64,000 nucleotides of DNA from an uncultured Gammaproteobacteria bacterium (GTDB lineage Bacteria; Pseudomonadota; Gammaproteobacteria; Steroidobacterales; Woeseiaceae): positions 213 to 64,212 of the forward strand of contig CAWJBO010000005.1 in NCBI GenBank assembly GCA_963841145.1, given 5' to 3'. Positions 7,417 through 52,520 of the stretch are shown here, one piece after another; within the stretch, counting starts at the first letter, position 1, and each line of letters begins with the position of its first letter. The notes below the pieces were generated by a model. That model was not told the DNA's origin and ran no database searches. It worked only from the letters and a program-made list of their open reading frames with translations. The position numbers and the translations under genes are program-made.

Positions 7417-7977
7417 CTAGTGCTTCCTGGGCGCGATCACCATGACCATTTGGCGTCCTTCCAATTGCGGCATCTGTTCCACAGAGCCGTATTCTTCCAG
7501 GTCGTCCCGCACCCGTGCCAGCAGTTGTGCGCCCAATTCCTTGTGCGCCATCTCCCGACCTCTGAATCTCAACGTGACTTTTGTTTTGTCACCGTCTTCA
7601 AGAAAAGCTATCAGCTTCTTGAGCTTGATCTTGTAATCGCCGTCCTCTGTTCCAGGACGGAATTTGATCTCTTTAACATGAACCTGTTTCTGCTTGCGCT
7701 TCGCCGACTGGTTTTTCTTGTTTTGCTCAAACAAGTACTTACCGAAGTCCATAATTCGGCAAACCGGAGGTTCGGCCATCGGTGACACTTCGACGAGGTC
7801 CAGGCTCTCTTCCTTGGCCAGTTCAATCGCCGCGGCGAGACCCATGACCCCTGCCTGCTCACCATCGGACTGAATAACTCGTACCTCGGTGGCCTCAATT
7901 TCTTCGTTGCGTCTTACTCGCTTTGTGGCTGCGATACCAAAATCCTCCAGAAACCCATCGGTTCCCGCTTGTTTCAA
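7417..7977 (-). CDS. infC: translation initiation factor IF-3
   Basis: The ORF is collinear with E. coli IF3 (...[16 protein letters not shown]...[17 protein letters not shown]...[10 protein letters not shown]). The track start at 7977 is TTG. IF3 genes normally use an atypical AUU/AUC-type start, and an in-frame ATC at 7935 is an alternative, so the 5' end is uncertain. Confidence 0.85.
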
Positions 7978-8131: not shown

Positions 8132-8206
8132 TGGTGGGCGATGGTGGTCTCGAACCACCGACCTCCACGATGTCAACGTGGCGCTCTACCCCTGAGCTAA
8201 TCGCCC
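8132..8206 (-). tRNA. tRNA-Val (anticodon GAC)
   Basis: The reverse complement, GGGCGATTAGCTCAGGGGTAGAGCGCCACGTTGACATCGTGGAGGTCGGTGGTTCGAGACCACCATCGCCCACCA, folds as a cloverleaf. Anticodon loop is UUGACAU and CCA is encoded. Confidence 0.93.
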
Positions 8207-11732: not shown

Positions 11733-11808
11733 TCCCCGATAGCTCAGTTGGTAGAGCGTCTGACTGTTAATCAGAATGTCCGTGGTTCGAGTCCGCGTCG
11801 GGGAGCCA
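11733..11808 (+). tRNA. tRNA-Asn (anticodon GTT)
   Basis: TCCCCGATAGCTCAGTTGGTAGAGCGTCTGACTGTTAATCAGAATGTCCGTGGTTCGAGTCCGCGTCGGGGAGCCA folds as a cloverleaf. Anticodon loop is CUGUUAA. It resembles E. coli asnT. Confidence 0.95.
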
Positions 11809-42736: not shown

Positions 42737-43390
42737 TCAGGCCACGAGAATGCTGTGCTGGTATTTGATGATCTCTTCGCGAAGGTAACGCTCTCGTTGA
42801 ATACTCAGCGTACTGCCCGATTCGTCAAGCAGCTCTCCGTCCAGTGATTGCGACAAGGTACGCGCCGCTGCCATCATGAGGTCGAATGACTCAACGCTGT
42901 CGATTGGGCCCGGTAAGACGAGAAAAAGGCTGATGCCAGGAATTTGTTGATCCTTGATATTCGCAAGGTCAAAACTGCCAGGCTCTACCAGGCTGGCGGC
43001 GCTGAATATCGTCCGCGTTTCATCATTGCCATCGTAGCGATGAAATATTCCGAATTTGCCATGCCGCAGGCCGATACCACGGAGACTCAGAATCAGGTCA
43101 TCTCCTTTGAATGCAGTTTTTTCGCCCGCGACGAGTCGCAATGTCACGATCATCTGCGGCACTTTATCCAGGGATGCCTCTTCGACCAGATCGCTATCAG
43201 GTGCGTCAATACCTTCATCGACAGGCACATCGGTATCAGCAACATCATCTTTGAGCTGCAAGGTTGGCTCGACCCGCCTTACATCAACGGCGTTCTCGTC
43301 CGATTTTTCCTTGTCACGTCGGCTATAGAGGTAAACGCCGGCGATCACCAGTATTCCAAATAACAACAGTAACCAACGCAGTCCGTCCAT
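42737..43390 (-). CDS. zipA: cell division protein ZipA
   Basis: 217-aa ORF with an N-terminal TM anchor (LRWLLLLFGILVIAGVYLY), a charged linker, and a C-terminal FtsZ-binding domain (GIFHRYDGNDETRTIFSAASLVEPGSFD). Lies between smc and ligA. Confidence 0.88.
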   Translation of the reverse strand: MDGLRWLLLLFGILVIAGVYLYSRRDKEKSDENAVDVRRVEPTLQLKDDVADTDVPVDEGIDAPDSDLVEEASLDKVPQMIVTLRLVAGEKTAFKGDDLILSLRGIGLRHGKFGIFHRYDGNDETRTIFSAASLVEPGSFDLANIKDQQIPGISLFLVLPGPIDSVESFDLMMAAARTLSQSLDGELLDESGSTLSIQRERYLREEIIKYQHSILVA

Positions 43391-43411
43391 TTCTCAAACT
43401 CGCATTGCTGG

Positions 43412-46400
43412 CTAACTCGCGGCCATCTTCACCGCTGCATCGAGGTCCACCGAAACCAACCGTGAGACACCTGGCTCCTGCATAGTGACACCCGATAACT
43501 GTCGAGCCAGCTCCATCGTGACTTTATTGTGGGTGATAAAGATAAACTGCACCTGCTCAGACATGTCCTTGACGATTTCGCAAAAGCGACCGACGTTGGC
43601 GTCATCAAGAGGCGCGTCAACCTCATCCAGCATGCAGAAAGGTGCCGGGTTCAACTCAAAAATCGCAAACACCATGGCAACCGCAGTAAGCGCCTTCTCG
43701 CCACCCGACAAAAGGTGAATCGTGCTGTTGCGCTTGCCAGGTGGACGGGCCATAACCGTCACGCCGGCAGACAGCAGATCATCGCCGGTCATCTCAAGGT
43801 AAGCGTGGCCGCCGCCGAAGAGCTTCGGAAAGAGACGTTTGAAACCATCGTTTACATTATTGAATGTCTCCTGGAAACGTGTGCGTGTCTCGCGGTCAAT
43901 CTTGCGAATAGCTCCCTCAAGGGTTTCCAGAGCGTCATTCAGATCTGCAAGCTGCGAGTCCAGGTACTCCTTGCGCTCGTTCTGTTCTTTAAATTCATCG
44001 ATAGCGGCGAGGTTGATCGGCCCAAGACGATCAATTCGCAGGCGCAACTTCGCGAGTTTCTCTTCCCAACCCTCGATCGTTGCCGTCTCGTCCATTTCCT
44101 CCAGCAACGATTCAAGTTCGAACTCGGTTTGGGACAGCTGATCAGCAAATCCCTCATGTCGCACCCGAAGCTCTTGCACCGCCATTTCCGCTTCGCTCAC
44201 GTGTGTACGCGCGGCGTCGACTGACTGATCTACCTGCAGCCGCGACTGATCCAGTTCTCGCAGCTCGGCTTCGATCTTCTCGACAACCTGCCGTGCAGCA
44301 GCGAGTTCTTCCTCGACGACGAGTCTTACTGCGAGCTGTTCTTCAAGCGACGTCTTGTTTTCGGCAAGCGGCGCCACACTCTGCTGCAATTGCTCGCGAA
44401 TCTCTTGTTCTCGAGATTGGAACTGGTTCAGCTGAGCCTGCATACGCGCGAGGTTCTGCGCAGCTGACTCCTTGCTCGTACGACGGCTTTCAAACTGAAT
44501 TGCAGTGCTCTGAACGCTCTGTCGATCTTCTTCTGACTGCGCCCGGACTCGCTGCAACTCCGACCGTAGCTCCTCACGCTGCGACTCCAGGCTGGTCTTT
44601 TCAGCTTCAAGCCGCTCCATAGAATCGATAGCTTGACCGTGAACCCGTCGCGACTCTCGCAACTGCTCTTCAGCGGATATCTTCTCGCCATCAAGTTCAC
44701 TCGCCTCTTCAGCGAGCGCAAGCGTACGGGCCGCAGCCTGGTCCATTTTAAACCGGGCGGATTCCATCGCAGCCTTGATCTCGGAGTATTCGTTGAGCAC
44801 CGATGACGCGTCCTGCTGCATGGTTTCGCGGCGCTCTTCAAGTTGCGTCAGACGCATCCGGCCGTCGCGCTGGAGTTTCCGGGTACTTTCGAAGCGTGCC
44901 AGCATCTCGCGGAGATCAGCTTTCATACGGCGCATTTCATGCTCGCGTGCCAGCACGCCCGCTTTGCCATCCTGGGTTCGTGCGACGCGCAGCCAATTTT
45001 GGCCCAGCCAGATGCCGTCATCGGTAACTACCGACTCGCCAGCGCCGAGCGACTCGCGAATTGACAGGGCGTCACCGAGCGACGTTGCGACTCTTACCTG
45101 GCCGAGTATCTGCACGACTGCCGCCGGTGCCCCGGCAACTTTGCCAGCCAAGGTGCTGTCGGCGGCCGAAAAATCGCCGTCTCTCGCCTGTTCGCGGAAC
45201 ACAGTCAGGCTGCCGCTCTTTAAACTTGTTATCGACTCGGCAACCGGCGTGATATCTGAGACGCATACGGCCTGAAGGTAATCGCCCAATACCGTTTCGA
45301 CCGCCCGATCCCAACCGCTGGCAACGTCCAGCGTCTGTGCGACGCGTCGGTTGCCCTCAAGGCCTGCGCCCGCAAGCCAGCGCTTGGTGCTGTCATCGCC
45401 CGTTCCCAACGCCGCGTCCTGAAGTGCCTCCAGCGATGCAAACTTGCCCTGCGATTCATGCAGTGTGGTGCGGCGCTCTTCGACCAGGCGGGTCAATTTC
45501 TGATCTTGTTCGCGGAGCTTGCGGATCTTCTCCGCGGTATCTGTCAGATGCCGCTCGAACTCATCTCGTGCCTGGCGCTTCCTGAGCTCCTGTTCGGCCA
45601 GCTCGTCGTGCTTCGTCTTTAGTTCCACAGGGCTCGCGACGGTTTGCGCATCGTCGATCTTCTTGCGACGCTCCGAAAAGCTCTGCAGACGCGACTCAAT
45701 TTGTTCGGCGCGAGTATTCTCGACGTTCTGCTGCTGCAGCGCCTGGTTGTATCGCAGCGCATGGGCGTCCCACTGCTTCTGCCACTCAGCTAGCGCCGTT
45801 TCGGCACGCTGCAGCGACTCCGACGAAGAACGCTCGCTCTGCCGCGCTTGCTCCAGACCAGGCACCAGCTCACTCAGCGTGAGCTCGAGCTGCTCAATCT
45901 CGTCACGGTCCTGATTGATGTGCGCTGTGATTTCCCTGGCGCCGAGGACGGCCTGATCGAGGTCGGCCTCCTGTCGCTCCCGCAGGTCACGTGCGTGTTC
46001 TATCGATTGCTCCAGACGGGCGATGTCTGAGCCAACCTTGTAGTAGCGACCTTGTACGGCATTGAACTCGTCAGCGCGCTCGCTCTGCACAACGCGTGTG
46101 TCTTCCAAAGCGGCTTCGAGGCTGCGTTGTTTAGCGATAGCGGCTTCCAGCCGCGTCTTCTGCTCTTCAAGGCGTGTTTTCGCAGCGGTGGCCCGCTCGT
46201 CAACGTCCTGCGTTCGCAGCGCAAGGACTTCGGCCGACATCCTGCGTTCTTCGTTCTTATAGCGGCTGTATCGTTCTGCCGTTTTGGCCTGCCGGTCGAG
46301 GTGTTTGATCTGCTTTTCGACCTCGTCGAGCACGTCTAGAAGTCGATCCAGGTTTTCCTTGGTGTGCTTGATTCGGTTCGAAGTCTCGCGACGACGCTCT

Positions 46401-46921
46401 TTGTACTTCGAAATCCCCGCAGCCTCTTCGAGGAATACGCGCATCTCTTCCGGCTTCGCCTCGATAAGCCGGGAAATCATACCCTGCTCAATAATGGAAT
46501 AGCTGCGTGGACCGAGGCCAGTACCGAGGAAAACGCCTGTGATGTCCTTACGGCGACAGCGCGTACCGTTCAGGAAATAATTGGAAATGCCGTCTCGGCT
46601 TACTTCGCGGCGAATCGAGATCTCGGCGTACTGGGCGTACTGCCCTTCCAACGTGGTTTCGGTATTGTCGAACAGCAACTCAACGGATGCCGAGCCAATC
46701 GGCTTGCGTGAGCTCGAACCATTGAAGATCACGTCGGTGATGGAGTCGCCACGGAGGCGGCTGGCCGAACTCTCGCCCATAACCCAGCGCACGGCATCGA
46801 TGACATTCGACTTACCACAGCCGTTCGGCCCGACAACGCCAACCAGGCTACTTGGAAATGTGATCGTTGTTGGGTCGACGAAGGATTTGAAGCCGGCGAG
46901 CTTGATCTTGCTTAATCGCAT
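43412..46921 (-). CDS. smc: chromosome segregation protein SMC
   Basis: 1169-aa ORF with Walker A (GPNGCGKSNVIDA), long coiled coils, a hinge, a signature motif (LSGGEKALTAVA) and Walker B (FCMLDEVDAPLDD). Confidence 0.97.
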   Translation of the reverse strand: MRLSKIKLAGFKSFVDPTTITFPSSLVGVVGPNGCGKSNVIDAVRWVMGESSASRLRGDSITDVIFNGSSSRKPIGSASVELLFDNTETTLEGQYAQYAEISIRREVSRDGISNYFLNGTRCRRKDITGVFLGTGLGPRSYSIIEQGMISRLIEAKPEEMRVFLEEAAGISKYKERRRETSNRIKHTKENLDRLLDVLDEVEKQIKHLDRQAKTAERYSRYKNEERRMSAEVLALRTQDVDERATAAKTRLEEQKTRLEAAIAKQRSLEAALEDTRVVQSERADEFNAVQGRYYKVGSDIARLEQSIEHARDLRERQEADLDQAVLGAREITAHINQDRDEIEQLELTLSELVPGLEQARQSERSSSESLQRAETALAEWQKQWDAHALRYNQALQQQNVENTRAEQIESRLQSFSERRKKIDDAQTVASPVELKTKHDELAEQELRKRQARDEFERHLTDTAEKIRKLREQDQKLTRLVEERRTTLHESQGKFASLEALQDAALGTGDDSTKRWLAGAGLEGNRRVAQTLDVASGWDRAVETVLGDYLQAVCVSDITPVAESITSLKSGSLTVFREQARDGDFSAADSTLAGKVAGAPAAVVQILGQVRVATSLGDALSIRESLGAGESVVTDDGIWLGQNWLRVARTQDGKAGVLAREHEMRRMKADLREMLARFESTRKLQRDGRMRLTQLEERRETMQQDASSVLNEYSEIKAAMESARFKMDQAAARTLALAEEASELDGEKISAEEQLRESRRVHGQAIDSMERLEAEKTSLESQREELRSELQRVRAQSEEDRQSVQSTAIQFESRRTSKESAAQNLARMQAQLNQFQSREQEIREQLQQSVAPLAENKTSLEEQLAVRLVVEEELAAARQVVEKIEAELRELDQSRLQVDQSVDAARTHVSEAEMAVQELRVRHEGFADQLSQTEFELESLLEEMDETATIEGWEEKLAKLRLRIDRLGPINLAAIDEFKEQNERKEYLDSQLADLNDALETLEGAIRKIDRETRTRFQETFNNVNDGFKRLFPKLFGGGHAYLEMTGDDLLSAGVTVMARPPGKRNSTIHLLSGGEKALTAVAMVFAIFELNPAPFCMLDEVDAPLDDANVGRFCEIVKDMSEQVQFIFITHNKVTMELARQLSGVTMQEPGVSRLVSVDLDAAVKMAAS

Positions 46922-47102
46922 TGGTGGTGTAGGCCGATATCCCGTAAAAGGCGGTTAGTGTAATGCAATTCCGGCAATAAAACGATTGTCGCCCAAAAAA
47001 GACAATATCGGCAAAAGGCCAGCAAATACAGGGGCTGCGGGGGCTTTACGTGGTTCTGAAACAGCGGGCAAAAATAAGGCTTCCATAGGGCTACCAGCCA
47101 TG

Positions 47103-47108
47103 TATAAT
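47103..47108 (+). promoter_or_regulatory. candidate -10 hexamer for the lysine-rich DksA gene
   Basis: Perfect TATAAT lies 35 nt upstream of ATG 47143. An AGGAG Shine-Dalgarno sits at 47131-47135 with a 7-nt spacer to the ATG. Only a weak -35 is visible. Confidence 0.45.
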
Positions 47109-47142
47109 CGCGGCCTTTTCTGTCCCCGGCAGGAGCAAATTG

Positions 47143-48162
47143 ATGCCCGTAAAGAAAGCAACGAGCAAGAAGCGAAAGTCGACGACGGCTCGCAAGAAAG
47201 TTACCCGTAAAAAGGCCACGGCGAAGAAAGCCACCGCCAAGCGGAAAACAGCGAGCAAAACGAAGGCGCCCGCTCGAAAGAGCGCGCGCAAGAAAAAAGC
47301 GAGTAAGAAGAAAGTGACCAAAAAGAAATCGGCGGCCAAGAAGAAAGTGAGCAAGAAGAAGCCGGCGGCCAGGAAGAAGGTCAGCAAGAAGAAGCCAGCG
47401 GCCAGGAAGAAGGTCAGCAAGAAGAAGCCGGCGGCCAGGAAGAAGGTCAGCAAGAAGAAGCCGGCGGCCAGGAAGAAGGTCAGCAAGAAGAAACCGGCGG
47501 CCAGGAAGAAGGTCAGCAAGAAGAAACCGGCAGCCAAGAAAAAGGCCACCAAGAAAATCGCCAAGAAGAAGCCCGTGTCGCGTAAGAAGGCGCCTGCCAG
47601 GAAGAAGGCAAGCAGCAAGAAACACGTGCCCAGCGTCAAGAAGGCGGCCGTCAAGAAACGCGTACCCTCCCGGGAACCCGTCGCTCGAAAAGCGCCCGCC
47701 ACTCCGCGAGCCAGGCGCGACGTCATGTCCGGACCTATTCATGGTATTGCGCCGTACAAGCCAAAGCGCGGCGAGGAATTCATGAGCGACGCGCAGATAG
47801 AACATTTTCGGAAAATACTGTCAGCCTGGAAGAACGAACTGATTTTCGAGGTTGACCGTACCGTGCATCACATGCAGGACGAGGCAGCCAACTTCCCGGA
47901 CCCGAATGACCGAGCCACACAGGAGTCCGAATTCGGCCTGGAACTTCGAACGCGTGATCGCGAACGCAAGTTGCTGCGAAAAATCGAACAGGCGCTGGCT
48001 CGCCTGGATGATGGAAGCTACGGATTCTGCGATGAGACCGGCGAAGAGATCGGACTCAAGCGCCTCGAGGCACGCCCGGTAGCAACGCTCTGCCTGGAAG
48101 CACAAGAGCGGCGTGAACTTGCCGAGCGGCAGTTCCGCGACAGGGACGATCGTTACCGGTAG
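47143..48162 (+). CDS. dksA: RNA polymerase-binding transcription factor DksA with an N-terminal lysine-rich histone H1/AlgP-like repeat extension
   Basis: The C-terminal ~145 aa are collinear with E. coli DksA (GEEFMSDAQIEHFRKILSAWKNEL...HMQDEAANFPDPNDRATQESEFGLELRTRDRERKLLRKIEQAL...LEARP). The same frame is open for ~195 codons upstream and encodes a K/A/P/R-rich sequence (75 Lys in the first 190 residues by hand count). The SD and -10 precede the upstream ATG. gluQ follows immediately, as is typical. Confidence 0.8.
   Translation: MPVKKATSKKRKSTTARKKVTRKKATAKKATAKRKTASKTKAPARKSARKKKASKKKVTKKKSAAKKKVSKKKPAARKKVSKKKPAARKKVSKKKPAARKKVSKKKPAARKKVSKKKPAARKKVSKKKPAAKKKATKKIAKKKPVSRKKAPARKKASSKKHVPSVKKAAVKKRVPSREPVARKAPATPRARRDVMSGPIHGIAPYKPKRGEEFMSDAQIEHFRKILSAWKNELIFEVDRTVHHMQDEAANFPDPNDRATQESEFGLELRTRDRERKLLRKIEQALARLDDGSYGFCDETGEEIGLKRLEARPVATLCLEAQERRELAERQFRDRDDRYR
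47341..47538 (+). repeat. 33-bp tandem coding repeat x6 (KKVSKKKPAAR units)
   Basis: aagaaggtcagcaagaagaagccggcggccagg is repeated six times with a few substitutions. It lies inside the lysine-rich domain. Confidence 0.95.
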
Positions 48163-48177
48163 GCCGGATCGCCGACG

Positions 48178-49110
48178 GTGACGCGCGAGCCAGCCCAATA
48201 CGTCGGCCGGTTCGCGCCTTCACCCACCGGGCCACTCCATTTTGGCTCGCTGGTCGCGGCCACCGCCAGTTACCTGCAAGCGCGGTCGATGAACGGTCGA
48301 TGGCTGCTGCGCATCGAGGACATCGACCCGCCGCGGGCGCAGCCTGGTGCCAGCGACGCTATCCTGAAAGCACTTGAGCGGTACGCCTTCGAGTGGCACT
48401 CGGATGTCATATTCCAGAGCAGCAGCCAGGAAGCCCACGAGGCGGCACTGCGAACCCTGCTTGAGCAGGGCCACGCCTATGCCTGCGGCTGTTCACGCCG
48501 CGACCTCGCGGATGCAGCACGGGGCCCTCTTGGCACGATCTATCCTGGCACCTGTCGGAATGGCTGCGACGCCCCCGAAACGGCCATTCGCGTCAGAACG
48601 ACAGATGCCCCAATCTCGTTCATCGACGGATTACAGGGTCCCCACACCCAGGCGCTGGAAAGTGAGTCAGGCGACTTTGTGATTCGACGCCGCGACGGGC
48701 TCATCGCCTACCATCTGGCCGTGGTAGTGAATGACGCGCTTGAAGGCATTTCGGAGATTGTGCGTGGCATTGACCTGATGGACTCAACGCCACGACAGAT
48801 CTGGCTACAGAAACTGCTCGGCTTCCCCACACCGGGTTACCTCCATATCCCTGTCGTCACCCACCCGAACGGCGACAAACTCAGCAAACTGACGGGCGCG
48901 CGGGCGGTGCCACTGGACGATGCCGAACGGGCGCTGTTCGGTGCCCTCGTGGCGCTGCAGCAGGAGCCGCCGGCATCGCTGCGATACGCCTCACTCACTG
49001 AAATCTGGCGGTGGGGCCTGACGAACTGGCGCATTGAGGTGCTGCAAGGCAAAGTCGCTGTTCCTACTGATAGCACCGCTTTGGCGGCTCTTGGCCCCGG
49101 ACTCTGGTGA
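48178..49110 (+). CDS. gluQ: tRNA glutamyl-Q(34) synthetase
   Basis: 310-aa ORF with a GTG start. Has a GluRS-like catalytic core without an anticodon-binding domain (GRFAPSPTGPLHFGSLVAA...LLRIEDID...KLSK motif: DKLSKLTG). The dksA-gluQ pair is conserved. Confidence 0.92.
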   Translation: MTREPAQYVGRFAPSPTGPLHFGSLVAATASYLQARSMNGRWLLRIEDIDPPRAQPGASDAILKALERYAFEWHSDVIFQSSSQEAHEAALRTLLEQGHAYACGCSRRDLADAARGPLGTIYPGTCRNGCDAPETAIRVRTTDAPISFIDGLQGPHTQALESESGDFVIRRRDGLIAYHLAVVVNDALEGISEIVRGIDLMDSTPRQIWLQKLLGFPTPGYLHIPVVTHPNGDKLSKLTGARAVPLDDAERALFGALVALQQEPPASLRYASLTEIWRWGLTNWRIEVLQGKVAVPTDSTALAALGPGLW

Positions 49111-49145: not shown

Positions 49146-49258
49146 AGCTTCACCCTTGCAACGGGGATACGCTCCCCCGCCCCCTGTTGCAAATGCCTGA
49201 AGGTGAAATCACTCTACGGCGGGCCCCCTGCGCAAGCGGGGGGCCATTTTTTTTGCCA
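49146..49258 (+). ncRNA. candidate structured small RNA or leader ending in an intrinsic terminator
   Basis: Nested helices (ttcacc/ggtgaa, ttgcaac/gttgcaa, gggga/tcccc) are followed by ggccccc-N10-gggggcc plus T8. It lies in the 188-nt gap between gluQ and the hydrolase gene. No known family recognised. Confidence 0.25.
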
Positions 49259-49298
49259 GTTTCCTCTCTCCTATCGCAAATTCGGCTTATTTCCGACG

Positions 49299-50327
49299 AT
49301 GTCCTCTGACGCCCACGACAAACGCATCATTCCCAGCACGTTCCGGGCAGCCCGCTGGCTTCGCAACCGGCACGCTCAGACGATCTATCCGAGCATGCCG
49401 TGGGCCTGGCGCGGTAAGCCTGCGCTACGCCGAGACAGCCTCGAATTGCCGGACGGTGACATCACGGCCGTCGACTGGCTGGTCGAGGCGGACGACACGC
49501 CGGATGCCGCGCCACTGCTCATTATCCTGCATGGTCTCGAGGGATCCGCCGAGTCGTCGTATGCGCGCATGCTCATGGAGGCAGCGAGGGACCGGGGCTG
49601 GCGTTCCTGCGTCCTGCATTTTCGAGACTGCGGCGACTACACGAACAGACTGCCGCGGCGCTACCATGCCGGCGAGACCAATGACTTGCGCTTCTTCCTG
49701 AACCGCCTGCAGGCCGAACGCGAGGGCTCACAGAACCCGGGCCCGCTACTGGCGGTCGGCTATTCTCTGGGCGGCAACGTACTCTTGAAATATCTCGGCG
49801 AATCGGGCGCGGACACACCGTTAGACGCCGCCTGTGCCGTCTCGGTCCCCTTGGATCTTCACGAATGTGCCGATGCATTAGATATAGGTTTTTCAAAGAT
49901 TTATAGGCATTATCTCTTAAAACGCATGAAGTCTGCCGTGACACGGAAATTCGACCAGCATACGGCCGCTTTCGACTGGAACCGAGCCATGAACGCCCGC
50001 ACGTTTGCCGAATTCGATGATGCGGTCACGGCACCACTGCATGGGTTCCAGGGCAAACAGGACTACTATGATCGCTGCAGCTCTGTGCACTATCTGCAGG
50101 GAATCGAGACGCCAACGCTGGTCATCAACGCGCTGGACGATCCCTTCATGACACCCAACGTGATCCCGACGGCCGATCGACTCTCTGCGAGCGTGACTCT
50201 CGAAGTCGCGGAAAATGGTGGCCATGTGGGCTTTATTGATGGGGGTCCGCCCTGGCGACCGACCTTCTACCTGCCGGCCCGGATACTGGAGTTCCTGGAA
50301 CCGTTTGCGGCCAAACCGGGGCTATAA
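49299..50327 (+). CDS. YheT-like alpha/beta-fold hydrolase
   Basis: The start is taken at MSSDAHDKRIIPS (ATG 49299). Carries the HGLEGS motif (LIILHGLEGSAESSY), a nucleophile elbow (GYSLGGN) and C-terminal His (GGHVGF). Confidence 0.85.
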   Translation: MSSDAHDKRIIPSTFRAARWLRNRHAQTIYPSMPWAWRGKPALRRDSLELPDGDITAVDWLVEADDTPDAAPLLIILHGLEGSAESSYARMLMEAARDRGWRSCVLHFRDCGDYTNRLPRRYHAGETNDLRFFLNRLQAEREGSQNPGPLLAVGYSLGGNVLLKYLGESGADTPLDAACAVSVPLDLHECADALDIGFSKIYRHYLLKRMKSAVTRKFDQHTAAFDWNRAMNARTFAEFDDAVTAPLHGFQGKQDYYDRCSSVHYLQGIETPTLVINALDDPFMTPNVIPTADRLSASVTLEVAENGGHVGFIDGGPPWRPTFYLPARILEFLEPFAAKPGL

Positions 50328-50432: not shown

Positions 50433-52520
50433 CTACGCAGCATCCACTTCCTTCATGGAAAGACGTACCCTGCCCTGGCGATCGACTTCGAGTACCTTGA
50501 CGCGAACCGCATCACCCTCGGCGAGCTTGTCGCTAACCTTCTCAACGCGCTCATTCGAGATCTGCGAGATGTGTACCAGGCCGTCCTTGCCCGGAAGGAT
50601 GGTCACAAACGCGCCGAAGTCCATCAGGCGAGCAACCTTGCCGTCGTAGATTCTGCCAACCTCGACATCTGCCGTGATCATCTCAATCCTGCGGCTTGCT
50701 TCCTTGCCGGACGCACCGTCGACCGAAGCAATACGAATGGTGCCGTCATTGTCGATATCAACAGACGCGCCGGTTTCCTCGGTGATCGCGCGAATTACCG
50801 CGCCACCCTTGCCGATAACATCGCGAATCTTGTCGGGGTCGATCTTCATGGTCATGATGGTCGGTGCCCACTCGGACATCGTTTCACGCGGCTCGCTAAT
50901 GACCTTGTTCATCTCGTCAAGGATATGCAGCCGTGCATCGCGAGCCTGATCGAGCGCCTTGCTCATGATCTCGCGCGTGATGCCCTGGATCTTGATATCC
51001 ATCTGCAGGGCCGTGATGCCGCCGTCCGTGCCGGCTACCTTAAAGTCCATGTCGCCGAGATGATCTTCGTCGCCGAGGATATCGGTAAGAACGGCATATT
51101 CATCGCCCTCTTTCACGAGACCCATGGCAATACCGGCAACCGGTGCCTTGATAGGAACACCCGCGTCCATGAGTGCGAGGCTGGTGCCGCAAACCGACGC
51201 CATTGAACTCGAACCGTTGGATTCGGTGATCTCCGAAACAACGCGTATTACGTAGCCAAACTCGTCCATATCAGGCATAACCGCCTGAATACCACGGCGA
51301 GCCAGCTTGCCATGGCCTATTTCGCGTCGCTTCGGTGAGCCGGTGAAGCCGGTCTCACCAACGCAGAATGGCGGGAAATTGTAGTGCAGCATGAACGGCT
51401 CTTTGCGCTCGCCCAGGATGGCATCAATGATCTGCGCGTCTCGGCCGGTACCCAGCGTCGTTACGACAATGGCCTGGGTCTCACCGCGTGTGAACAATGC
51501 GGAGCCGTGGGCCCGCGGCAACAGGCCAACGCTAACCTCGATCGGTCGAACAGTCGACTGGTCGCGGCCATCGATACGGGGTTCACCCTTGATGACACGC
51601 TGGCGAACGATAGTCTTCTCGAGCTTCGACAACGCGCCCTTGACCTCGTCGGCCGACCAGCGTGACTCTTCTCCGCCGCAGAGCGATTCAGTCGACGCCG
51701 ACTTGGCTGCCGAAACGGCCGCCTGGCGATCCTGCTTGTCCGTGATGCGATAGGCTTCGGCCAATCCGGACTCGGACTCGGCCGCAACAGCAGCTGCGAG
51801 ATCTTTGTCCTCTTCCGGTGCCTGCCAGTCCCAGGCCGGCTTGCCGACTTCGGCGGCGAGCTCGTTGATCGTGTCAATAACGACCTGCATTTGCTCGTGA
51901 CCAAACATGACCGCGCCAAGCATGACTTCCTCTGACAAGCCAGTGGCTTCAGATTCCACCATTAGCACCGCGTCTTTCGTGCCAGCTACAACCAGCTCGA
52001 GATCCGAATCAGCAACCGCGGCGACGCCGGGGTTGAGGATGTACTCGCCGTCCTTATAGCCGACCTTGGCGGCGCCAATCGGTCCCGCAAACGGCATGCC
52101 GGAAATAGCCAGCGCCGCGGACGCACCGATCAGTGCCGGAATGTCAGGATCCACATCAGGATTCAATGACATCACCGTAGCGATGATCTGAACTTCATTT
52201 TTGAAGCCCTTGGGAAACAGCGGGCGAACAGGCCGGTCAATCAGGCGGCACGTCAGTACCTCTTTTTCACCCGGACGACCCTCACGCTTGAAGAACCCGC
52301 CCGGAATCTTGCCGGCCGCGTAGGTCTTCTCCTGGTAATTGACGGTCAGCGGGAAAAAGTCCCTGCCCGGATCTGCCGCTTTGCGACCAACGGCGGTCAC
52401 GAGGACGATCGTTTCGCCCATATCAACGATGACTGCACCGTCGGCCTGACGAGCGATCGCGCCCGTATCAATGGTTACCTTGTGTTCCCCATACTGGAAC
52501 GTCTTACTAGTGGATTTCAC
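50433..52520 (-). CDS. pnp: polyribonucleotide nucleotidyltransferase (PNPase)
   Basis: 695-aa ORF with two RNase PH domains, a KH domain and an S1 domain. Lies in rpsO-pnp synteny. Confidence 0.97.

Follow-up and report, generated by a model that had tools for sequence, protein, structure and literature searches.

The locus considered here raises two questions: whether a housekeeping DksA is really synthesised with a long polycationic extension in front of it, or whether the open frame ahead of its core is devoid of meaning, and what such an extension could do. In the window, defined as the whole stretch of 64,000 nucleotides that was analysed (contig CAWJBO010000005.1 of assembly GCA_963841145.1, from an uncultured gammaproteobacterium of the family Woeseiaceae), the dksA open reading frame (ORF) occupies positions 47143-48162 (+) and encodes 339 amino acids followed by a stop codon at 48160-48162. 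The original prediction, made by a model from the letters alone, saw in it a lysine-rich histone H1/AlgP-like repeat domain fused in frame to DksA. As judged from comparison of sequences, the fusion is genuine and is translated from position 47143.

Ahead of the DksA module the frame remains open for 194 residues without interruption, in line with the ~195 codons announced, and a recount gave exactly the 75 lysines that had been counted within the first 190 residues. Residues 1-194 include 75 Lys, 36 Ala, 19 Arg, 17 Ser, 16 Val, 15 Pro and 11 Thr but no more than two acidic residues, and have a calculated isoelectric point of 12.0 and a net charge of about +91; the share of Lys is 38.7%, as against 1.6-5.7% in the neighbouring proteins. 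An in-frame stop lies upstream of the ORF at 47086 (corrected position). The TTG at 47140, one codon 5′ of the ATG at 47143, is a possible alternative start, and the ORF listing gives 47140-48162. An open frame in a purine-rich repeat says little by itself, and therefore the case for translation of the extension rests on comparison across genomes.

When the DksA core by itself was used to scan one genome per species, 80 loci were obtained. The 38 closest of them (78-96% core identity) are mostly labelled Woeseiaceae and include the isolate Lentisalinibacter orientalis YNA5901 (locus L020), whose tail measures 116 amino acids; 33 are complete with a single open frame, four are cut by a contig end, and one has an in-frame TAG in the tail. 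The 33 complete relatives and the window together make up the 34 complete loci mentioned below. The frame 5′ of the core is open in 33 of the 33 complete relatives, with extensions of 91-193 amino acids, the extension of the window being the longest at 194; the 34 extensions contain 20-45% Lys, with a median of 145 residues and 40% Lys. The N-terminal peptide MPAKKAASKKRK is common to the complete loci and follows the pattern M-(P/A)-(A/V)-K-K-A-A-S-K-K-R-K. The expectation that related dksA genes would carry the same in-frame extension was thus borne out in every complete locus. As for a stop or frameshift in relatives, which had been named as a possible objection, all complete loci are open, but one extra metagenome-assembled genome (MAG), a close relative (L001:2482-3000, MAG SHLT01000046.1), has a single in-frame TAG (GCC TAG AAG) in mid-tail, beyond which the frame and the composition continue. 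This TAG may be an error in the sequence; otherwise it is a nonsense change of recent date, by which the tail would be shortened. A separate H1-like gene joined to dksA by a frameshift or an assembly error was also considered and rejected, as every complete relative has one ORF.

The full-length protein has about 8000 homologues, of which the best 120 are all 265-348 amino acids long and contain DksA domains. A search with the tail alone, which had been recommended, matched 654 of 5.8 billion proteins, and the best 120 of these 654 all have both DksA Pfam domains and measure 265-340 amino acids; it follows that the tail is a lineage-specific DksA-linked sequence, beyond generic low complexity. 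The indels that separate close homologues preserve the frame and fall only within the middle of the tail. In the two closest loci, the ratio of nonsynonymous to synonymous substitution rates (dN/dS; gapless Nei-Gojobori) is 0.27 in the first 50 tail codons, 0.09 in the last 44 and 0.01-0.06 in the core; the other loci were discarded from this estimate, because in them indels put the codons out of register and synonymous substitution has reached saturation.

The window does have an ATG at the junction of tail and core (Met195), which could support a simpler view, namely that only a DksA of 145 amino acids is made from 47725 and the Lys-rich frame is an untranslated leader or an assembly artefact; moreover, a 250-bp array of 33-bp units, such as that present in the tail, can be mis-assembled from short reads. 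However, the codon aligned to Met195 in 39 sequences is ATG in four, TTG in four and CTG in 13, the remaining 18 being CTT, CTC, CTA, TTA, TTT, TTC, ACC or GTC. The ATG is therefore missing in 35 of the 39, and 31 have no ATG, GTG or TTG at this position, though the ~20 residues that follow, SGPIHGIxPYKPKRGEEYM, are strongly conserved as protein. Because the Met195 position lacks a start codon in most relatives, this segment can be translated there only from an upstream start. The predicted pairing with the anti-Shine-Dalgarno sequence is -6.6 kcal/mol at 47143 and -3.1 at 47725, the latter being close to the in-ORF background mean of -2.9, so the earlier statement that no comparable Shine-Dalgarno (SD) sequence precedes the internal Met stands.

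Initiation at 47725 alone is also opposed by the conservation of the promoter, the SD and the N-terminal peptide at 47143. Both the TATAAT and the AGGAG 7 nt before the ATG are present as originally described. The TATAAT lies at most 60 nt from the start codon in 33 of the 34 complete loci, ending mostly 33-34 nt before the ATG, and GGAG is found 4-16 nt upstream of the start in all 34. The sequence (G)CTTCC(A) recurs at the -35 position in most Woeseiaceae loci. A consensus promoter scan of positions 46850-48350 called no sigma-70 site; it missed the site because the -35 hexamer is weak, and the promoter is therefore argued from cross-genome conservation. We infer a transcription start near 47115. 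With the promoter so near the ATG, the Lys-rich codons fall inside the mRNA, directly behind a good ribosome-binding site. The terminator-like matches of the same scan, all on the minus strand inside coding sequence, were set aside. In an Rfam scan covering the whole window, the only matches were three tRNAs lying elsewhere, so that no known RNA element explains the region.

A G+C-rich discriminator after the -10 hexamer is typical of promoters inhibited by DksA and guanosine tetraphosphate (ppGpp). Negative autoregulation is described for E. coli dksA (PMC4370453), and the discriminator of the window would fit negative autoregulation of dksA here as well.

Several features of the region concern gene calling. 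The SD-like sequence GCGAGGAA (-6.5 kcal/mol; 47765-47784, +) precedes the ATG at 47782, which encodes Met214, an invariant residue in the GEE(Y/F)M motif, and several database gene calls start exactly at Met214 (e.g. P0134, P0137, P0140-P0142), giving truncated DksA predictions. The ATG of ATGTATAAT overlaps the -10 box ~42 nt 5′ of the true start and is in frame with dksA in many relatives (L004, L006, L009, L013 and others, also P0121); in these, gene callers add a false leader 'MYNPxLF..RQE..'. The corresponding ATG of the window, at 47100, is out of frame. The minus-strand ORFs 46912-47805 (297 amino acids) and 47091-47726 (211 amino acids) were rejected as genes, having no family matches; they are the expected shadow of the purine-rich repeat and could fool gene callers.

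Experimental evidence for a long DksA comes from Xanthomonas euvesicatoria, in which peptides, mapping of the transcription start and mutagenesis of the start codon led to re-annotation of dksA from 147 to 256 amino acids (PMC5559785). The extension was detected there by mass spectrometry, with the K/A/P-rich peptide AAPAAAKPAAKPVASK, and a processed shorter DksA variant was reported (PMC5559785). This protein is likewise gammaproteobacterial and has an in-frame upstream extension, shorter than that of the window (~109 amino acids); the authors handled it as an annotation correction, and its nature and function are not discussed in the paper (PMC5559785). A false gene, XCV2557, was annotated opposite the Xanthomonas dksA, akin to the shadow ORFs described above. 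The mass-spectrometric detection counts against exclusive synthesis of the short form, as does the fact that the composition and frame of the tail are kept across thousands of proteins and in independent assemblies; such exclusive synthesis is considered highly improbable. A short isoform may exist besides the long form, arising by internal initiation or by processing.

Table 1. Features of the dksA region (positions are those of the window).
Feature	Position	Strand	Basis
-35-like hexamer CTTCCA, 3/6 matches to TTGACA, 17 nt 5′ of the -10 hexamer	47080-47085	+	Read from sequence
-10 hexamer TATAAT	47103-47108	+	Sequence and conservation
G+C-rich discriminator CGCGGCC	47109-47115	+	Sequence; CCCGGCC or CCCGCCC in most relatives
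Shine-Dalgarno GGCAGGAG, core AGGAG 47131-47135, 7 nt before ATG	47128-47135	+	Sequence, conservation, pairing energy
Long DksA, full coding sequence	47143-48162	+	Translation, ORF listing, homologues
Lys-rich N-terminal extension, residues 1-194, predicted intrinsically disordered	47143-47724	+	Composition, AlphaFold2, homologue comparison
Tandem array of 33-bp (11-codon) units encoding KKVSKKKPAAR	47307-47555	+	Tandem Repeats Finder (TRF)
Internal ATG, Met195, at tail/core junction, unconserved as start	47725-47727	+	Aligned codons, SD pairing
DksA core, residues 195-339	47725-48159	+	Pfam/NCBIfam matches, 1TJL alignment, AlphaFold2/Foldseek
Coiled-coil tip DPNDRA, residues 253-258	47899-47916	+	Alignment
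Two-cysteine (C2) finger C296-x2-T299-x17-C317-x2-A320	48028-48102	+	Alignment
gluQ (tRNA glutamyl-Q34 synthetase, GluQRS)	48178-49110	+	NF004314, 5.5e-111, above cut-off

The last ~145 residues had been taken for an unmistakable DksA, and the core indeed passes the cut-offs of the models DksA_N PF21157 (1e-33; 115.9 bits versus 27), zf-dskA_traR PF01258 (4.7e-12; 46.1 versus 24.9) and TIGR02420 dksA (162 bits versus 115.5). The enterobacterial equivalog NF008045 is not reached (183 versus 289), which is expected for a non-enteric orthologue. Residues 198-331 align without gaps to residues 16-149 of E. coli DksA (1TJL; offset 182, 1e-50, ~57-60% identity). The core comprises an N-terminal strand region, a coiled coil (helices 216-248 and 257-290), a globular/finger region and a C-terminal helix. 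In the AlphaFold2 model the predicted local distance difference test (pLDDT) score is 72-95 for residues 200-335, and a Foldseek comparison with the PDB returned 1TJL and two complexes of RNA polymerase, DksA and ppGpp (5VSW and 7KHI) at template modelling (TM) scores of 0.82-0.84 (0.84 for 1TJL) with a probability of 1.00, followed by Pseudomonas aeruginosa DksA2. The DxxDxA tip and the LEARP motif (residues 308-312), both noticed earlier, were located; D253, D256 and A258 of the tip are equivalent to E. coli D71, D74 and A76 and are invariant in 70 of 70 aligned homologues. The residues R91, L95, K98, R129 and K139 of E. coli DksA have roles in ppGpp site 2 (PMC7676912), and the equivalents of the first four (R273, L277, K280 and R311) are conserved here.

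Judging by these similarities, the core is the cell's orthologous DksA, the only difference of the core being the two-cysteine finger. A four-cysteine zinc finger is not found: its positions read C296, T299, C317 and A320, and in the relatives they read CTCA or CTSA, the latter with a single Cys. An identical CxxT-x17-CxxA finger, in a near-identical local sequence (ETGE.IGL+RL..RP.ATLC.EA), is present in P. aeruginosa DksA2 (4IJJ), which, unlike the protein studied here, has no tail and is a Zur-regulated paralogue expressed only under zinc starvation (PMC9213440). The core is nearer to DksA (1TJL, 1e-50) than to DksA2 (4IJJ, 9e-22) and stands at the housekeeping dksA-gluQ locus. C2 DksA proteins are reported to be zinc-free and to function in P. 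aeruginosa and Salmonella, DksA2 doing so in stringent control (PMC4850274), and by analogy the finger of the window is presumably zinc-free. Because C2 proteins are functional elsewhere, this finger marks a subtype and does not exclude membership in DksA. Compared with E. coli DksA (1TJL; 5VSW, 7KHI), the protein has an orthologous core, the same fold, the DxxDxA motif, four of the five ppGpp site-2 residues and the gluQ neighbour, but it differs in the 194 additional N-terminal residues of polycation, in the C-T-C-A finger instead of four Cys and in having Gln in place of K139.

The tail is predicted to be an intrinsically disordered polycation, with pLDDT of ~50 throughout and no secondary structure before residue 199 (AlphaFold2, 70-sequence alignment). 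Its ends, residues 1-52 (MPVKKA.SKKRK...) and ~150-194 (...VKKRVPSREPVARKAP...RRDV), are conserved, and its middle varies among close homologues. The designation 'H1/AlgP-like' is appropriate as far as composition goes, but the protein scores far below the cut-offs of the H1-like models: 17-19 bits versus 40 for Pfam HC2 (PF07382), 21-22 versus 80 for NCBIfam NF038053 and 11 versus 135 for NF038052. Since the cut-offs of HC2 and NF038053 are not reached, the H1-like resemblance of the tail is compositional and is not evidence of shared descent. AlgP/PhaF, chlamydial Hc2 and the Burkholderia H1-like protein have a similar K/A/P (+S/T/V) composition, short tandem repeats including KPAA, and predicted disorder. 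However, their tails are C-terminal on other domains or stand alone, whereas here the tail is N-terminal on DksA. The AlgP-type tetrapeptide KPAA occurs six times in the tail, each time inside an 11-residue unit; with only six KPAA, an N-terminal tail and DksA as the attached domain, the protein does not belong to the AlgP/PhaF type.

The same arrangement of parts is known from Streptomyces coelicolor DdbA (SCO2075), which consists of an H1-like N-terminal domain and a DksA-like C-terminal domain (PMC3643593). DNA is shifted and condensed by full-length DdbA and by its N-terminal half but not by the half that resembles DksA, and over-expression of DdbA suppresses a relA defect (PMC3643593). 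In DdbA, as in the protein of the window, a Lys-rich N-terminus with repeats precedes a C-terminal part of the DksA type that has the two aspartates of the tip, and DdbA is the sole such fusion with a tail shown to bind and condense DNA (PMC3643593). It differs in being an actinobacterial paralogue, a distant relation of E. coli DksA (8e-11), with a C4 finger, and its extension is shorter, with 93 residues beyond E. coli DksA and five (S/T)(A/T)AKK repeats (PMC3643593). Its N-terminus was regarded by the authors as Streptomyces-specific (PMC3643593). It is likely that the fusion described here arose independently, because its core is orthologous to E. coli DksA and DdbA matches the latter at 8e-11 only. 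A similar design logic can be seen in CarD variants, where an RNA polymerase-interacting CarD_TRCF domain is combined with an H1-like or HMGA-like basic tail; in myxobacterial CarD, the HMGA domain can be exchanged for an H1-like one (Garcia-Heras et al. 2009 PNAS, cited in PMC2919716). CarD differs in that its polymerase-binding module is unrelated (CarD/TRCF-RID family) and does not enter the secondary channel, and in that its tail is C-terminal. By its sequence, the protein of the window is a member of the H1-like/DksA fusion class (architecture of the DdbA type), built on a canonical gammaproteobacterial DksA with a presumably zinc-free finger.

The best explanation, which we hold with moderate confidence, is that the 339-residue protein is a DksA of the canonical, secondary-channel type which its polycationic tail tethers to the nucleoid. 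The C-terminal module would act as the housekeeping DksA in RNA polymerase's secondary channel together with ppGpp, and the disordered tail would bind DNA non-specifically, like other bacterial H1-like tails. In this way the tail would hold DksA on the nucleoid and raise its local concentration near transcribing or initiating RNA polymerase; it may also add to compaction and could couple DNA compaction to stringent control, and the 33-bp repeat would permit in-frame variation of tail length. Of these elements, the fusion, start site, fold, predicted disorder and conservation come from sequence comparison, and the action on RNA polymerase with ppGpp and the binding to DNA are carried over from characterised relatives and analogues.

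Several points weigh against this explanation. DNA binding by the tail is suggested from composition only, with the H1-like family models not reached, and the ppGpp site-2 residue K139 is replaced by Gln (Q321), four of the five site-2 residues being kept. The processed DksA of Xanthomonas implies, by analogy, that the full-length protein need not be the only active form, and the TAG in L001 may mean that a shortened tail is tolerated. Finally, the tail changes rapidly and different lineages have different repeat units, which suits a loosely constrained, composition-dependent role as well as a specific one.

The composition of the tail would also suit polyphosphate (polyP) as a ligand. The tail may mainly bind polyP and respond to starvation, during which polyP would compete with DNA for it, and DksA could be relocated to polyP granules or trimmed to its short core by a polyP-stimulated protease. 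The KPAA tails of AlgP/PhaF bind DNA, and AlgP, whose repeat number varies between isolates, localises to polyP granules and spaces them (PMC9239181); the six KPAA found here resemble that tail. Runs of at least three Lys, abundant in the tail, are reported targets of non-covalent lysine-polyP interaction (PMC12077175), the Xanthomonas DksA is processed (PMC5559785), and a link of DksA to polyP accumulation is cited in these papers (Gray 2019). On the other hand, polyP is bound in vitro by any polycation, and the window offers no tie between the locus and polyP, neither ppk, ppx nor granule genes being neighbours of dksA; this role of the tail is regarded as unlikely. A scheme combining both ligands, in which the tail holds DksA on the nucleoid during growth and accumulation of polyP releases or re-targets a short, E. 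coli-like DksA, is given a low probability. In such a switch, polyP would out-compete DNA, or would recruit a protease trimming at the conserved R-(G/R)-D-V / (L/M)-S-G-P junction, and variation of the repeat number would tune the threshold between strains.

The tail might instead bind RNA or ribosomes and not DNA, bringing DksA to nascent rRNA or mRNA or to complexes in which transcription and translation are coupled. In favour of this, its K/R/A/S composition, nearly devoid of acidic residues, is just as typical of tails that bind RNA, and DksA has its N-terminus outside the polymerase, on the rim of the secondary channel (5VSW, 7KHI). Nevertheless, no RNA-binding domain model matched the protein in the Pfam and NCBIfam family scans, and the characterised bacterial H1-like tails found in the literature all bind DNA (PMC3643593, PMC9239181). 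A tail serving RNA or ribosomes thus appears quite improbable, and tethering to the nucleoid is preferred.

The structure of the repeat array bears on the way in which the tail was formed. TRF gave a period of 33 bp, 7.5 copies, 93% matches and a score of 379. At the protein level, the array consists of five exact KKVSKKKPAAR units and a sixth ending in K, with degenerate units on both sides; thus, of the six tandem units reported previously, five are exact, and the sixth has one conservative R-to-K change. Six synonymous sites and a single Arg/Lys site account for the differences among the six core copies, and the copy number varies between near-identical homologues, always in frame. An assembly artefact had been mentioned as a danger for the repeat, but KKVSKKKPAA(R/K) units also occur in independent assemblies from other sources (P0001, P0003); because its units recur in this way, the array is not an artefact, while its exact copy number could still be in error. 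Judging from these copies, the tail is built partly by recent in-frame tandem duplication of the 11-residue unit.

Tails of this kind are not confined to Woeseiaceae. An exhaustive HMMER search that took only the core as its query returned 13,826 matches from 1.84 billion cluster representatives; among the best 150 of these, 90 have an N-terminal extension of at least 50 residues, 59 have such an extension with at least 20% Lys, and 43 have at most 25 residues, these counts not being frequencies, as clustering at 50% identity inflates the fast-evolving tailed forms. The taxonomic range is taken from the 80 genome loci with titles and from the literature. Among the titled loci, Lys-rich tails were found outside Woeseiaceae, for example in Thiogranum and several unclassified Gammaproteobacteria, and in Kangiella, Thiodiazotropha, Halopseudomonas and Aliiglaciecola the core is preceded by only 8-10 residues. 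The tails accompany C4 as well as C2 or C1 fingers. On the evidence of these sequences, Lys-rich tails on DksA are widespread, and public annotation already gives the name 'RNA polymerase-binding protein DksA' to long proteins related to this one. The architecture was first called functionally unusual; this is true relative to E. coli, but it is overstated in view of the wide occurrence of Lys-rich DksA extensions and of the Xanthomonas and DdbA precedents.

Tail-less DksA loci (L044, L047, L050-L056, L059, L066-L067, L071, L073, L075, L077-L079) often still begin with a short Lys-rich peptide, MAQKKAKAQ or MAVKKKANTK. Because of this, it can be suggested that the tails arose by tandem duplication from an ancestral Lys-rich N-terminus, expanding repeatedly. 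The same beginnings also agree with the idea that the tail is a loosely constrained low-complexity sequence without a specific ligand, growing and shrinking by replication slippage from such an N-terminus and at most tuning solubility, abundance or turnover. The idea is likewise in accord with lengths of 91-194 amino acids within one family, with repeat units that differ between lineages, with near-identical 33-bp copies implying recent amplification and with the MAG that has a stop inside the tail. Free-running expansion, however, is expected to be lost often, whereas no complete Woeseiaceae locus lacks the tail, many further lineages also retain it, and its composition is stable at ~40% Lys; in addition, its ends are conserved, and dN/dS is below 0.3 in the closest pairs. 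A tail without a specific ligand is therefore rather unlikely, and a tether to the nucleoid remains the preferred explanation.

The surroundings of the gene agree with the assignment to the canonical dksA-gluQ locus made in the original prediction, as GluQRS is encoded directly downstream. The gluQ gene starts 15 nt after the dksA stop, in the dksA-gluQ order of Gammaproteobacteria, and the scan of 46850-48350 found no terminator-like plus-strand site between the two genes, which are probably co-transcribed. The genes zipA and smc are divergent from dksA (42737-46921, -); an alpha/beta hydrolase gene (49203-50327) follows gluQ, with pnp beyond it (50433-52520, -). The three tRNA genes of the window lie at 2495-2568, 8135-8206 and 11733-11805. 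The only other Lys-rich stretch of the window, 7567-7728 (-), judged by eye from its sequence, looks like a piece of an ordinary IF3 (infC).

The fusion is real and conserved and common in marine sediment bacteria, and it constitutes an under-studied variant and no new kind of protein. It brings no new principle, since the architecture has been published for Streptomyces and the long form has experimental support in Xanthomonas. The finding is of use to annotators and to researchers of the stringent response: gene callers mishandle such loci, truncating starts at the internal Met, adding false leaders from the -10-box ATG and calling false genes on the opposite strand, and the length of DksA is not to be assumed when stringent-response regulation in environmental bacteria is interpreted. 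In the Woeseiaceae, which are abundant marine-sediment bacteria, and in several other gammaproteobacterial lineages, the housekeeping DksA carries an H1-like polycation of 90-200 residues. If this tail tethers DksA to DNA as the DdbA tail does, then the local concentration of DksA, compaction of the nucleoid and stringent control would be physically linked.

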